A stretch of 39,725 nucleotides of DNA from a virus (Duplodnaviria; Heunggongvirae; Uroviricota; Caudoviricetes). The DNA is taken from IMG/VR virus record IMGVR_UViG_638341086_000010. One strand, given 5' to 3'. The notes beneath the pieces are model-generated. The model did no database searches and had not been told where the DNA came from. It saw only the letters and a list, made by a program, of their open reading frames with translations. Numbering within the stretch: the stretch's first letter is position 1; every line of letters starts with the position of its first letter. Both the position numbers and the translations under genes were made by a program. Positions 1,007-39,725 of this stretch are shown here, piece by piece.

Positions 1007-1582
1007 CTACGGTAGGGCTGGCCATTCAATATCCGGTGCAGTTGATGTATCAACACGATTCAGCAACACCCGATACTTTTTCCAGGCTTCCAGCAACAAG
1101 GTTTCTTTCTCCGTTGCGATCTCCAGATCCACAGCATCCTGAAGCGGCGCTATATGCTCACTGGCTACCTGCATCAGGCTGTTTTTTGTTTCTTCCGCCT
1201 CCCGGATCCGGAACAGTTTTTCTGCTTCCGTATCCTTCACCCAGGCTGTGCCGTTCCACTTCTGAAACTCCCCTTCCGGGGATAACCAGGTGACATTTTC
1301 CGGTAATGAGCCGAGTTCAGAAATAAATAACGCGTCGCCGGAAGCCACGTCATAAACCGTTTTACCCCGATGATCTTCAACGAGATGCCACGATGACTCA
1401 TCACTGTTGAAAACAGCCACGAAACCAGCCGGAATATCTGGCGGTGCAATATCGGTACTGTTTGCTGGCAGACCTGTATGAGGCGGAATATATGCATCAC
1501 CTTCACCAATAAATTCATTAGTTCCGGACAGCAGATTATAAATTTTTATGGTCCGTGGTTGTTCACTCATTCTGAATGCCAT
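1007..1582 (-). CDS. tfa: Tail fiber assembly protein Tfa (lambda Tfa-like), 191 aa
   Basis: Translation [18 protein letters not shown]... matches lambda Tfa as recalled; start ATG overlaps stf stop by 1 nt (TAATG). Confidence 0.9.
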
Positions 1583-30032: not shown

Positions 30033-30365
30033 TTAATGTGGTGTGCTTCGTGACAATAAATTAATAACCAACACACCGGCACAAATCAACATCATGCCTA
30101 TAATGGCTGGCAGGTCCAGCCGTTGGCCGAAAAATCCCCATGACAGTAAACTAATCAGGACAATACCGACTCCTGACCAGATAGCATAAGCAATCCCTGT
30201 AGGAATATAAGCCAGCGTCTGAGCTAATAACCAGAATGATGCACAATAACAAATAATTGTACCAACAGATGGCCATAACCGTGTAAAACCTTCTGAAAAC
30301 TTCATTAAGGTTGTACCAATGACCTCTGCAAGTATTGCACCACCAAGATAAATATAAGGGTTCAT
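30033..30365 (-). CDS. emrE: Small multidrug resistance (SMR) efflux transporter EmrE, 110 aa
   Basis: From MNPYIYLGGAILAEVIGTTLMKFSEGFTRLWPSVG the translation matches E. coli EmrE as recalled (four TM helices, conserved Glu14); internal ATG at 30365 chosen over the ORF-track start. Confidence 0.9.
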   Translation of the reverse strand: MNPYIYLGGAILAEVIGTTLMKFSEGFTRLWPSVGTIICYCASFWLLAQTLAYIPTGIAYAIWSGVGIVLISLLSWGFFGQRLDLPAIIGMMLICAGVLVINLLSRSTPH

Positions 30366-30432
30366 AGCATATTCTTTCCTGTTCAAACTGGAGAGAATTG
30401 TACTACAGTTTGAACTCAACTCACCTGTTTCA

Positions 30433-30735
30433 TCATTGTGTTCCCATTGATGTTCTTTTATATACCCTCAATACCCGTTTCATCGCGGCACTCTGGCGAC
30501 ACTCCTTAAAAATCAGATTCGTGCTCACCTTTCCTTCCCGTTCTTCTCTGGTAGCGAACCGGTAATACACCGTTCGCCAGACCTTACCATCAACGACCAG
30601 GATTCCTGCCCGCGCCATTTTAGCCGCAGCCTGATTTATGCTGGTTACGGTTGCGCCTGTTACCGCGGCAACGTCCTGTGCACAGAAGCTCTTATGCGTC
30701 CCCAGGTAATGAATAATTGCCTCTTTGCCCGTCAT
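30433..30735 (-). CDS. ren: Ren-like protein (Rex-exclusion escape), 100 aa
   Basis: Translation MTGKEAIIHYLGTHKSFCAQDVAAVTGATVTSINQAAAKMARAG... matches lambda Ren as recalled; 4-nt overlap with P. Confidence 0.85.
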   Translation of the reverse strand: MTGKEAIIHYLGTHKSFCAQDVAAVTGATVTSINQAAAKMARAGILVVDGKVWRTVYYRFATREEREGKVSTNLIFKECRQSAAMKRVLRVYKRTSMGTQ

Positions 30736-31433
30736 ACACTTGCTCCTTTCAGTCCGAACTTAGCTTTAATTTCTGCGATCTTCGCCAGAGCCTGTGCACG
30801 ATTTAGAGGTCTACCGCCCATAACAGGAAGTTGTTTTACTGGTTCAGGTATCGTCTCACCACGGTTAATTCGCGCTGTCATACAGGTCAGTTCATCGGCA
30901 GCCTTGCGCCGTAATTCCGCGTCAGTCAGCGCATTGGCCCGCATGTTCTGGTACAAGTTGGTAACCAACCAGTAATGCGCGTTCGATTTCCACGGATAAG
31001 ACTCTGCATCCGGATACAGGCCACGCTTCCGGCAATACTCGTAAACCATATCAACCAGCTCGCTGACGTTTGGCAGCCCGGCGTTAACAGATGCTTCTTC
31101 CCGGCACCAGGCGACAAACTGCCCGGGTGATGGCAGGAATGGTCGATTCTGCCGACGGGCTACGCGCATTCCAGCGTTAACCTGTTCCATTGTGGTGATC
31201 CCGTTTTCCCGGAAAGCCAGAACCCACTGGCGGCGGATTTCGTTCAGTTCATTCTGGTCACGGTTAGCCAGGCTCGCCGGGAAAGTTGCCAGTAACTGGC
31301 TTAACACACCGTTGATGATCTGCGCTACCTGCTGTACCTGTGGCTTTTCGTCGTACTGTTCCGGCATGTTGTTGGCGATCCGGCGCATCTGCTCACAGTC
31401 AAAGTTAACCATCTGTGCGGCGATGTTTTTCAT
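30732..31433 (-). CDS. P: Replication protein P (DnaB helicase loader), 233 aa
   Basis: 233 aa, the same length as lambda P, N-terminus MKNIAAQMVNFDCEQMRRIANNMPEQYDEKPQVQQVAQ.... Confidence 0.93.
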   Translation of the reverse strand: MKNIAAQMVNFDCEQMRRIANNMPEQYDEKPQVQQVAQIINGVLSQLLATFPASLANRDQNELNEIRRQWVLAFRENGITTMEQVNAGMRVARRQNRPFLPSPGQFVAWCREEASVNAGLPNVSELVDMVYEYCRKRGLYPDAESYPWKSNAHYWLVTNLYQNMRANALTDAELRRKAADELTCMTARINRGETIPEPVKQLPVMGGRPLNRAQALAKIAEIKAKFGLKGASV

Positions 31434-32359
31434 AGCTCCACCCCGTAAATCCAGTCAGTGTTCGTCAGGTCGAGTTTTGGTTTGCCGGCTGTCACGCCAG
31501 CCTGTTGCTTGTTTCGGTTGATTTCGAGCTGGGTCCACTTGTCGCGGAGTTTGGCCGGACTTAGCACGTTACCGGACCAGAAGTTGTCCTGGCATGCCCA
31601 GCGGAACAGCACGCACATGTCGCGGTGGTTACGTCCGTCACGTTCACGCATCAGGCGGATATCGTTAGCCCACCCTGCAAAATTCGGTTTTCTGGCTGAT
31701 GGCGCGATGGTCTTCACCATGTCAAACATCCACTCTGCGGCGGTCAGGTCTTCTGCTGTCCCCCACTTGCTGCCGCTCTGAATTGCAGCATCCGGTTTCA
31801 CCACAGGAAGATCGTTTTCTGGTTGGTCAGAGGATTCGCCAGAATTCTCGGACGAAAAAGGTTTTATATTGTCTTTTGTTAGTTTGTCTTTTGTGTTTAC
31901 CTGATTCGGGTAAACGCCTTTACCTGATTTGGGTAAACTTTTTTTACCTGATTCAGGTAAATTTACCTCTTTCAGGTAAACTTTATTTTTCTTACCTGAT
32001 TCGGGTAATGTTGACCATTCACTGACCACATTATTAATGCCGGTATTCCGCCCGCTCTGAATAAAAATCCCACGCTTTACCAGAACACTTTTTGCAGCAG
32101 AACACTTGTGCGGCAATATCCCGGTTAATTCGGAAAGTTGCTCGTTGCTAACCCAATCCAGTTTTTTATTAAAGCCATATGTTTTGCGCATGACAGCCAG
32201 AAAGACCAGAAGCTGGTGCTGTGTTAATCCGGCCAGCATCACAGCTTCCAGCAACTCATTTGCAATGCGCGTATAACCATCATCGAGATCTGCCACGCGC
32301 GGCTCCTTTTGTGCCGCATCCGGCACTGGAAAATTGAATATCTCAGCAGTGTTTGCCAT
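31430..32359 (-). CDS. O: Replication initiator O, about 309 aa, with lambda-like P-interacting C-terminus; an in-frame upstream ATG at 32449 would give 339 aa
   Basis: From MANTAEIFNF…VADLDDGY the N-terminus parallels lambda O (MTNTAKILNF…VADLDDGY); GGGAGGA RBS before the 32359 ATG. The upstream ATG at 32449 overlaps the YdaT-like stop as ATGA. Iterons lie inside the gene. Confidence 0.85.
   Translation of the reverse strand: MANTAEIFNFPVPDAAQKEPRVADLDDGYTRIANELLEAVMLAGLTQHQLLVFLAVMRKTYGFNKKLDWVSNEQLSELTGILPHKCSAAKSVLVKRGIFIQSGRNTGINNVVSEWSTLPESGKKNKVYLKEVNLPESGKKSLPKSGKGVYPNQVNTKDKLTKDNIKPFSSENSGESSDQPENDLPVVKPDAAIQSGSKWGTAEDLTAAEWMFDMVKTIAPSARKPNFAGWANDIRLMRERDGRNHRDMCVLFRWACQDNFWSGNVLSPAKLRDKWTQLEINRNKQQAGVTAGKPKLDLTNTDWIYGVEL
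31897..32010. repeat. ori: Replication origin iterons: five roughly 19-bp copies of TTACCTGATTCGGGTAAAC-like repeats with an AT-rich patch, inside the O gene
   Basis: Five directly repeated units (TTACCTGATTCGGGTAAAC, TTACCTGATTTGGGTAAAC, TTACCTGATTCAGGTAAAT, TTACCTCTTTCAGGTAAAC, TTACCTGATTCGGGTAATG), each internally dyad-symmetric (TTACC…GGTAA); position within O mirrors lambda ori. Confidence 0.8.
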
Positions 32360-32445
32360 AATTCCTCCCGCAATGAGTGTGTTACGATTTGCACCTGAAA
32401 GTCGGCTCTGTTCCAGCAGACCGGCTTTCGCCATTTCTGAACCTG

Positions 32446-32985
32446 TCATATCGCCCCCAGCATGGTAGTAACCATCGCCATCAATGGACCAGCCAGATCT
32501 GGGTCCACACGAAACATCGACACAATACCTTCACTAATTTCCTTCAGTTTCTGGTGGCGTGGTGCGTTGAGAATGACAGCCTGTTTTGCCTCACTGAGTT
32601 CCTTTTCCATTTCAGCCAACCTAGCCATGAAGCTATCCTGCTCAACCAGGTAACCGCGATATTCCAGCGGTAGTACCGCCAGAATTGCCGGGGTCAGTTC
32701 ACGCACGTTATTTCGGTATTTTTCAGAATCGAATTTGTTATCGAGGAAGCGGAACAGCTTCTGGCGTGCACGGCTGACATCATCAGGGAAATCGATGGTG
32801 CCGCCGCCCTGCTCCCGATACTCATTCACAATGAGTGTGGCAACGACATCCTGATTATCTACAGCCGACCAGGCGCGGACGGCATCACGGATTTTTTCGT
32901 GGCCTGGCACCTGTTTTGTTTGAGAACGATTTATCACCGCAGTCGGGCTAAATCCGCTAGTCTGTTGGTATGTAAGTGGTTGCAT
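32446..32985 (-). CDS. YdaT-like (Rac prophage CII-position) regulatory protein, 179 aa
   Basis: Sits in the cII position between the cro-like gene and O; motifs (…EYREQGGG… …LTPAILAVLPLEYR…) resemble Rac YdaT as recalled; AAGGAG RBS. Confidence 0.7.
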   Translation of the reverse strand: MQPLTYQQTSGFSPTAVINRSQTKQVPGHEKIRDAVRAWSAVDNQDVVATLIVNEYREQGGGTIDFPDDVSRARQKLFRFLDNKFDSEKYRNNVRELTPAILAVLPLEYRGYLVEQDSFMARLAEMEKELSEAKQAVILNAPRHQKLKEISEGIVSMFRVDPDLAGPLMAMVTTMLGAI

Positions 32986-38706: not shown

Positions 38707-39725
38707 AAAAGCTAGGGGATTTACCTGATGTCACTTTTGAAGAGGCCTGCCTAAGATGGCTTGAGGAAAAAGCTGATAAAAAATCTCTCGATTCAGATAA
38801 AAGCCGGATTGAGTTCTGGCTTGAACATTTTGAGGGTATAAGGCTTAAAGATATCTCGGAGGCAAAGATTTACTCTGCTGTAAGCAGAATGCATAACAGA
38901 AAGACGAAAGAAATATGGAAACAGAAAGTTCAGGCCGCCATCAGGAAAGGTAAAGAACTGCCTGTTTATGAACCAAAGCCAGTATCAACTCAGACAAAGG
39001 CAAAGCATCTTGCCATGATAAAGGCCATTCTCCGTGCTGCAGAACGCGACTGGAAGTGGCTGGAAAAAGCGCCTGTCATCAAGATACCAGCGGTCAGAAA
39101 CAAGCGAGTCAGATGGCTGGAAAAGGAGGAAGCAAAACGCCTTATTGATGAGTGCCCCGAACCACTGAAATCTGTCGTCAAGTTTGCGCTGGCAACTGGT
39201 CTGAGAAAGTCGAACATCATAAATCTGGAATGGCAACAAATCGACATGCAGCGACGAGTTGCCTGGGTGAATCCAGAAGAGAGCAAATCAAACCGCGCCA
39301 TTGGTGTGGCGCTGAACGATACCGCCTGTAAAGTGTTGCGTGATCAAATAGGCAAGCATCACAAATGGGTGTTTGTACATACCAAGGCGGCTAAGCGAGC
39401 AGATGGAACATCAACGCCTGCGGTCAGGAAGATGCGCATCGACAGCAAGACATCATGGCTATCAGCTTGTCGTCGTGCAGGAATTGAAGATTTCCGTTTC
39501 CATGACCTCAGACACACCTGGGCAAGCTGGCTGATTCAGTCAGGCGTCCCATTATCAGTGCTTCAGGAAATGGGCGGATGGGAGTCCATAGAAATGGTTC
39601 GTAGGTATGCTCACCTTGCGCCTAATCATTTGACAGAGCATGCGAGGAAAATAGACGACATTTTTGGTGATAATGTCCCAAATATGTCCCACTCTGGAAT
39701 TATGGAGGATATAAAGAAGGCGTAA
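38562..39725 (+). CDS. intD: Tyrosine integrase (DLP12 IntD-type), 387 aa
   Basis: C-terminal catalytic motifs (…[11 protein letters not shown]… …[15 protein letters not shown]…); the whole translation matches the DLP12 integrase as recalled. The gene ends at the window edge, so the att site and target tRNA are outside the window. Confidence 0.92.

Follow-up and report, generated by a model that had tools for sequence, protein, structure and literature searches.

A probable replication origin of lambda architecture with a different iteron specificity in a DLP12-type lambdoid prophage

The window considered here is the whole 39,725-nucleotide (nt) stretch of IMG/VR record IMGVR_UViG_638341086_000010, a virus of the Caudoviricetes, and the element in question is an array of short palindromic repeats, or iterons, situated inside the gene for the replication initiator O. 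The O gene lies on the minus strand at 31430..32449 and encodes a protein of 339 amino acids (aa) that matches the Pfam family Phage_rep_O (PF04492) with an expect value (E) of 1.1e-33 and 116 bits against a cut-off of 28.7, which bears out the proposal of a first-pass annotation, made from the letters of this DNA alone, that the repeats fall within O coding sequence. The array (31897-32008, 112 base pairs (bp), corresponding to residues 148-185 of the 339-aa protein) separates an N-terminal DNA-binding domain (N-domain) predicted to be a winged helix (32015..32359, minus strand; 115 aa counted from an ATG at 32359) from a lambda-type C-terminal domain (C-domain; 31430..31855, minus strand). 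The P gene for a lambda-type DnaB helicase loader follows at 30732..31433 on the same strand, overlapping the O stop codon and matching Phage_lambda_P (PF06992) with E=2e-60. With a probability that we put at roughly 0.9, the array is a lambda-architecture replication origin of a DLP12-type lambdoid prophage that belongs to a different specificity group. As such it adds no more than an ordinary variant of specificity to a system that has been known for a long time and is thoroughly understood.

The iteron array

Each of the five iterons has a core of 17 nt, or 19 nt when the flanking T and A are included, and the consensus read in the O sense, on the minus strand, is TTTACCCGAATCAGGTAAA. Numbered in this sense, with the cores given in plus-strand positions, iteron 1 (31992..32008) reads TTACCCGAATCAGGTAA, a perfect consensus, and is an “extra” upstream copy 29 bp from iteron 2 (31963..31979, TTACCTGAAAGAGGTAA), which has the most divergent centre and intact arms. 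Iteron 3 (31944..31960, TTACCTGAATCAGGTAA) is self-complementary at 18/19 positions; it is followed by iteron 4 (31920..31936, TTACCCAAATCAGGTAA) and by iteron 5 (31897..31913), which again reads TTACCCGAATCAGGTAA and adjoins an AT-rich element. Start-to-start spacing in the O sense is 29, 19, 24, and 23 bp, and the TTACC and GGTAA arms are unchanged in 5/5 iterons, the differences being confined to the centre. The pattern TTACCYN5RGGTAA, with at most one mismatch allowed, occurs five times in the 39.7-kilobase (kb) window and always within the array, against a chance expectation of 0.18, and none of 100 dinucleotide-preserving shuffles gave five matches. Between 14 and 18 of the 19 positions of each iteron are self-complementary, so that the earlier description of five dyad-symmetric repeats of about 19 bp within O holds in full.

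The array is also translated as the linker between the two domains of O, and the repetitive LPESGKK linker that had been described is found for three copies, LPESGKK twice and LPKSGKG once. On this account the repeats could be only a repetitive peptide linker of the form LP(E/K)SGK(K/G), with no role as DNA sites. The O linker does tolerate change, since O alleles from which parts of the AT-rich region of ori are deleted in frame retain the ability to complement (PMC6022878). However, the five iterons stand in codon phases 0, 2, 0, 0, and 2, and the two in the other frame encode the unrelated peptides VYLKEV and VYPNQV; the use of two codon phases indicates that conservation acts on the DNA palindrome rather than on the peptide or the reading frame. 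Each iteron is a DNA palindrome whose invariant positions are the arms and not codon positions, and other genes of the O family have different palindromes in the same place and at the same spacing. We therefore give a linker without a DNA-site role almost no credence.

Conservation among close relatives follows the same division between arms and centres. Among 80 viral contigs with an O N-domain 94-100% identical to that of the window, the full set of five at 29/19/24/23 is kept in 79; the remaining one, an E. coli-type IMG/VR contig, has lost a single iteron. Substitutions among these contigs fall mostly in the iteron centres, and the arms are touched by only four singletons.

Directly after iteron 5 lies the AT-rich element (31855-31896, minus strand), the presumed DNA-unwinding region, in which GC content drops to 0.25 and AT skew is strong. 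Its O-sense strand is A-rich and contains ACAAAAGACAA twice, as a direct repeat at 31864-31893. The first-pass annotation had placed an AT-rich patch between the fourth and fifth repeats as counted along the plus strand; a 12-nt A/T-rich spacer is indeed found there (31980-31991), but the main element flanks the array on its other side. Lambda, SEN34, P22, and Klebsiella phages have homologous elements irrespective of iteron type. The ACAAAAGACAA doublet of the window recurs in SEN34, P22, and the Klebsiella phages, while lambda has one full and one shortened copy, and this conservation persists despite different iterons and, in P22 and the Klebsiella phages, unrelated O C-domains. Unwinding or loading may depend on the direct repeat as a shared signal.

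Beyond the element, the two halves of O meet at a conserved joint, GAGAATTCTGGCGAATCCTCTGAC (31826..31849, minus strand), also written GAGAATTC, and the same block is found in lambda, phi80, and SEN34. From the joint onward the window O is 98% identical to lambda O, near-identity extending up to the C-terminus, and 138/141 residues of the C-domain are those of lambda O. By homology this would be the domain that interacts with P, and the P protein itself is identical to lambda P at 226/233 residues (97%).

Comparison with characterized origins

The closest architectural counterpart is the origin of lambda, which has an initiator of the same family, a loader of the same P type, and an array at the same position within O. 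The annotated lambda ori (39034-39118) has four iterons, ITN1-4, spaced at 20/24/23 bp, and iterons 2-5 of the window are spaced at 19/24/23 bp. Lambda also has an AT-rich element, with a ACAAAAGAC motif, that is homologous to that of the window, and the joint is identical. The anatomical features of a lambda-architecture origin are all found in the window: an O-family initiator, at least three dyad-symmetric iterons inside the initiator gene, the spacing, the AT-rich element, and a downstream loader gene. What differs is the specificity module. The lambda iteron reads TCCCTCAAAACGAGGGA and the window iteron TTACCCGAATCAGGTAA, with 8/17 positions in common and 3/5 arm positions different; the window has five iterons where lambda has four; and the N-domains are identical at only 56/117 residues (48%). 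Iterons of the lambda type (TCCCTC-N5-GAGGGA) form no cluster in the window, where five scattered matches, a chance-level number against 2.9 expected, were found, none of them in O. By iteron type and by N-domain type, sequence comparison places the window origin outside the lambda specificity group of lambda, 434, and the Shiga toxin (Stx) phages. The first-pass annotation had anticipated both an arrangement parallel to ori-lambda and an iteron sequence unlike that of lambda, and both expectations are confirmed; it had also proposed a comparison with phi80, and the iterons of the window are identical neither to those of lambda nor to those of phi80.

In phi80 there are four annotated gp15 sites in gene 15, with the same architecture and the same joint, GAGAATTCTGACGAATCCTCTGAC. 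The phi80 iterons are of TTCCCGAAAACGGGAA type at a spacing of about 21 bp and its N-domain is 40% identical to that of the window, which lies outside the phi80 specificity group. A search for the window-type pattern in the whole phi80 genome gave one chance-level match, outside ori.

Among classical phages, P22 comes nearest to the window in its specificity module. Its origin lies in gene 18, annotated as rep_origin in OQ031658, and its N-domain is 60% identical. The arms, (T)TACC/GGTA(A), are those of the window, as is the AT-rich element, which contains ACAAAAGACAAT twice. The centre of the P22 iteron is, however, 2 bp shorter (TACC-N5-GGTA against TACC-N7-GGTA in the window), so that the window falls outside the P22 specificity group as well. 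The gp18 C-domain is unrelated to that of the window, and its partner is a DnaB-type helicase (gene 12) rather than P.

The Stx phages 933W and P27 resemble the window in another respect, as they have six iterons, those beyond a core of four lying upstream of it as in the window; at the DNA level, P and the C-terminal half of O share about 95% identity with their window counterparts. Their iterons are of lambda type (TCCCTC...GAGGGA) and bound by lambda O (PMC7466680), and those of the window are of another type. The extra Stx iterons bind weakly in vitro and are nevertheless needed for plasmid establishment (PMC7466680). By analogy, iteron 1 of the window, which lies upstream at 29 bp and off the phasing of the core, is probably auxiliary, and the four-iteron relatives in Pantoea and Providencia have no counterpart of it.

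Membership in the same specificity group as the window is indicated for the Klebsiella phages GZ7, KO-TP1, and their relatives, which have five iterons at the identical spacing of 29/19/24/23 and N-domains that are 79-83% identical. Their O C-domains are unrelated to that of the window, and GZ7 has a DnaC-like loader, KO-TP1 a lambda-P-like one. The arrays of these phages carry no origin annotation.

Palindromes of this kind could in principle be operators of a transcriptional regulator, acting on P expression or on an antisense RNA, instead of initiator sites. Dyad-symmetric 17-19-mers are typical of operators, and there is a promoter-like antisense site at 32334-32362. The array nevertheless lies within coding sequence, 330 bp from that site; in the number of its iterons, their spacing, and its position next to an AT-rich element it agrees with ori-lambda in every point; and it co-varies with the O N-domain and not with the neighboring cI/cro-type genes, which differ among carriers. 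An operator function is accordingly a most improbable explanation.

Lambda has two misc_recomb features near the joint, on which its records carry no notes. Phage D2 (OM475427) was considered as a natural hybrid on which specificity could be mapped; its O consists of window-type codons 1 to about 82 joined out of frame to lambda-type sequence that includes lambda iterons. With this out-of-frame junction, two “O” coding sequences, and a partial genome, it was discarded as uninformative; its O is the product of a failed recombination or else of a chimeric assembly.

Covariation of iterons and N-domains

A survey of 80 loci from bacterial assemblies, taken at one genome per species and spanning N-domain identities to the window O from 85% to 41%, was used to follow iteron type through the family. 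Iterons were found de novo as dyad repeats downstream of each N-domain, with no motif assumed. The window type, TTACC-N7-GGTAA, accompanies N-domains of 64-85% identity in Enterobacter, Kluyvera, Pseudocitrobacter, Klebsiella, Pantoea, Providencia, Arsenophonus, and Sodalis, and other iteron types appear below about 63%. These are the P22-like TACC-N5-GGTA (53-63%), the SEN34-like TAGC-N7-GCTA (47-56%), GTCAC-N7-GTGAC (48-52%), the lambda type TCCCT-N7-GGGGA (44-50%), TCTCT-N5-AGAGA (44-50%), and rarer types that include GTGGT..ACCAC and AACCC-N7-GGGTT. At least eight discrete types are found in the 80 loci, nearly all spaced at 19-20/24/23 bp, so that the geometry is fixed and the arm sequence varies. 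Mean N-domain identity is 72% within an iteron type against 50% between types, and none of 2000 label permutations was as extreme.

Iteron type tracks the N-domain across genera and follows neither the C-domain nor the loader. The window-type N-domain and iterons are joined in E. coli to a lambda-type C-domain and lambda P, in Pantoea to a divergent lambda-like C-domain and P, and in Enterobacter, Kluyvera, Pseudocitrobacter, and Klebsiella phage GZ7 to an unrelated C-domain with a DnaC/IstB-like loader. Phage KO-TP1 has the unrelated C-domain of GZ7 type with a lambda-P-like loader instead, and two more combinations of C-domain and downstream gene are found in a Klebsiella sp. (L098) and in Pantoea/Providencia (L103, L105). 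In total, at least five different C-terminal/loader modules are joined to the window-type N-domain and iterons, which points to a recombination-tolerant boundary just past the AT-rich element. On sequence grounds, the N-domain and the iterons travel as one unit. Classical work with lambda/phi80/82 hybrids would reportedly predict the same. The proposal of the first-pass annotation that O N-domain and iterons form a matched pair unlike that of lambda is well supported by these sequence comparisons, in which the N-domain is 48% and the C-domain 98% identical to lambda and iteron type tracks the N-domain.

The number of iterons varies within the window type. In Kluyvera sichuanensis (L096) there are nine, spaced at 29, 19, 29, 19, 29, 19, 24, and 23 bp, and the repeated 29, 19 spacing suggests tandem duplication of a 48-bp unit of two iterons. 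Candidatus Sodalis has seven, and Pantoea and Providencia have four. In two O genes, those of Enterobacter sichuanensis (NZ_POVL01000015, O from locus position 1501) and Klebsiella grimontii (NZ_FZTC01000015), the iteron array is replaced in frame by an insert of about 115 aa with a T5orf172 domain match (PF10544, E=5e-8). The insert is flanked by the winged-helix domain on one side and by the AT-rich element, which encodes TKDK, on the other, the N-domains are 69-74% identical to that of the window, and no window-type iteron was found in either locus (3.3 kb each). A separate set of loci (L133-L148), from assemblies labeled Bradyrhizobium, Pseudomonas, Ruminococcus, Neobacillus, Oceanobacillus, Leeuwenhoekiella, and others, shares one O N-domain match together with lambda's own iterons. 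This N-domain is 49% identical to that of the window, the same value as for lambda O, and several of the records are of very low coverage or about 48.4 kb in length; from sequence, the set looks like lambda DNA contamination of the assemblies.

The residues that may determine iteron type were sought by a column-by-column mutual-information scan of 49 unique N-domains representing six iteron types, numbered from the Met at 32359. Positions 82-85, 88, and 91 are invariant or nearly so within an iteron type and differ between types: the window type has L-P-H-K at 82-85, A at 88, and S at 91; the lambda type P-V-K-R, E, and L; and residues 82-85 are H-H-T-H in the SEN34 type and D-S-T-K in the P22 type. 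The neighboring RKTYG-NK and A-K--L positions are nearly constant across all types. An AlphaFold2 model of the N-domain from a 25-sequence alignment, with a predicted local distance difference test score (pLDDT) of 76-90 over residues 30-115, is a winged helix composed of H47-61, beta 68-69, H72-79, H83-95, and a beta-hairpin at 99-108; a single-sequence model was unusable (pLDDT 41). The type-specific residues map to the N-terminal half of H83-95, which the model identifies as the predicted recognition helix (residues 83-95 from ATG 32359; 32075..32113, minus strand), and the model therefore leads to the prediction that specificity lies in recognition-helix residues. A PDB sequence search with O gave no match, and comparison of the model with the PDB by Foldseek gave generic winged-helix matches only (CRP/FNR, MarR, and the DnaD N-domain at a template modeling score of 0.52), all with E >= 0.01.

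Distribution and earlier descriptions

The module is far from rare. A 141-bp ori segment is present in 2447/5426 complete E. coli genomes (about 45%), with at least 99% identity in 1701 records, and the unusualness implied by the first-pass annotation is accordingly not upheld. A cluster of 7825 members contains the O protein, whose 309-aa form occurs unchanged on at least 1000 contigs. The module is shared at 98-100% identity by 15 sequenced phages with a recorded E. coli host, which suggests that it would support phage growth; these carriers include PhiR34_1, PhiR68_2, 4A7, Lambda_4C10, Perceval, Turner, 1W, and 3W. Six Klebsiella phages carry the module at about 80%, and the array extends to several further members of the Enterobacterales.

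These phages bear on whether the array is an origin by descent that is now a dead relic, the DLP12-type prophage being defective. DLP12 of K-12 is cryptic, elements related to insertion sequences (IS) are found in the window at 1041-1239 and 25391-25507, and an IS3 element interrupts the porin gene of a near-identical prophage. O, P, the five iterons, and the AT-rich element are nevertheless all intact, and there is 100% identity over 481 bp to PhiR34_1 and PhiR68_2, for both of which E. coli hosts are recorded. The cI, cro, int, terminase, portal, and lysis genes are annotated as intact in the near-identical prophage. A relic origin is for these reasons improbable, though it deserves more weight than a peptide linker or an operator array.

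No origin is marked in the fetched records with a window-type array, while the lambda, phi80, and P22 records do mark one, and the literature that could be searched does not contain the iteron string. The TTACC-N7-GGTAA iteron type is thus undescribed in that literature, yet it is present in about 45% of complete E. coli genomes. It could still be a rediscovery of an origin already described for a classical lambdoid phage, the candidate being phage 82. This phage is said to have five iterons, reportedly in work by Moore, Denniston and Blattner of 1981 (Gene 14:91), a paper cited in PMC7466680. Lambda/82 hybrid O proteins (Furth and Yates 1978, as cited in PMC6022878) imply a lambda-like O C-terminus in 82 like that of the window O. 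Against this, the phage collection, small partial records included, gave no match to the iteron/N-domain module under the name 82, 21, or phi80, and the source names from protein searches point to no classical phage. All of these points are absence of evidence only, and we consider the identity with phage 82 unlikely but worth keeping in mind.

Proposed mechanism and implications

The principle at work is more than 40 years old: the lambdoid ori lies inside O, iterons and N-domain set specificity, and the C-domain contacts P. In the lambda scheme established by Tsurimoto and Matsubara, Zahn and Blattner, and Schnos et al., O dimers occupy the iterons and assemble into an O-some, P delivers DnaB, and chaperones act on the complex. 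Lambda initiation is summarized in PMC7466680 and PMC6022878. By homology with lambda, winged-helix dimers of the O N-domain would bind each iteron of the window, one monomer per TTACC/GGTAA arm, and the four core iterons, about two helical turns apart, would assemble an O-some in which the DNA is bent and the adjacent AT-rich element melted. The lambda-identical C-domain would then recruit P-DnaB, and host chaperones would release the helicase, which would then support theta replication in both directions. As in lambda, the origin is presumably activated when transcription from the promoter on the cro side passes through O. Specificity would reside in the pairing of helix residues 82-91 (L-P-H-K-C-S-A-A-K-S) with the TTACC arms, so that lambda O should not fire the window origin, nor the window O that of lambda, while P and host interactions would be interchangeable with those of lambda.

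Several considerations weigh against assigning the array to a functional origin of separate specificity. O binding, unwinding, and origin firing are all argued from lambda by analogy. The N-domain and the iterons are less than 100 bp apart, so that physical linkage could account for part of their association; that the C-domain, just as close, is decoupled speaks against linkage alone but does not prove functional matching. The structure model is of moderate quality (mean pLDDT 75) and has no close solved homologue. Finally, the prophage copy has IS elements elsewhere, which may make its inducibility doubtful.

As the locus obeys the old lambdoid principle exactly, it carries little weight for the understanding of replication itself. 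Its modest practical value lies in defining a very common replicon type of E. coli prophages, one for which databases give only the label “replication protein” and annotate no origin. A tentative proposal, which we think has less than an even chance and is on balance unlikely, is that this TTACC-N7-GGTAA origin, with the O N-domain that belongs to it, defines a replication-specificity (incompatibility) group that the literature has not recognized, although nearly half of E. coli genomes harbor it. In that case, interactions in trans could arise between DLP12-type prophages already in the chromosome and phages of this group that infect the cell: the O of an infecting phage could fire the prophage origin, leading to escape replication or replicative killing, or the resident iterons or O could instead act on the newcomer by titration or exclusion. 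Iteron 1, the fifth and out-of-phase copy, might then be a regulatory add-on, and the six type-specific helix residues could amount to a simple, re-programmable specificity code operating over at least eight natural iteron types at one geometry. Together with the survey, the locus offers natural orthogonal O/iteron pairs of identical geometry that could be used for compatible lambda-type vectors or for tests of site reading by winged helices, and residues 82-85, 88, and 91 are those predicted for specificity swaps.

The surrounding prophage

There are two candidate starts for O. The ATG at 32449 overlaps the stop of a YdaT-like gene (ATGA) and gives the 339-aa form; the ATG at 32359 has a strong GGGAGGA Shine-Dalgarno sequence, aligns with Met1 of lambda O, and gives a form of 309 aa. 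Both forms are in public databases. The promoter-like site at 32334-32362 (plus strand; TTGAAT, 17 nt, TG-CATAAT) is sigma-70-like and runs antisense over the internal start at 32359, a match that is weak alone, with one observed against 2.3 expected from shuffles. In lambda this position is occupied by pO, the promoter of the oop antisense RNA.

Upstream of O are a cII-like gene of the YdaT family, a cro-like gene of the YdaS family, and a divergently oriented repressor of the S24-peptidase kind; neither the cII-like nor the cro-like gene is of lambda type. The YdaS/YdaT Pfam matches brought the Rac/oriJ module of K-12 into consideration, but this was ruled out because the Rac initiator is YdaU (DUF1376) with YdaV, whereas that of the window is of the O family and the window is of DLP12 type (intD, emrE, quuD). 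Only the YdaS/YdaT-family cro- and cII-like genes are shared between the Rac module and the window.

An Rfam scan of the window gave no match within the ori region and two matches elsewhere, an IS009 RNA at 1041-1239 (minus strand, 216 bits) and an ALIL pseudoknot, the frameshift element of the IS3 family, at 25391-25507 (plus strand, 120 bits), both of which indicate, from sequence, IS elements within the prophage. Chromosomal copies that are nearly identical carry the annotation of a DLP12-type prophage with intD, bet/exo/gam, ren, emrE, ybcK, rusA, quuD, essD/rrrD, and nohD. The multidrug efflux gene emrE (30033-30419, minus strand) is carried as cargo beside ren (30433-30735), downstream of P in the replication operon, as in DLP12.

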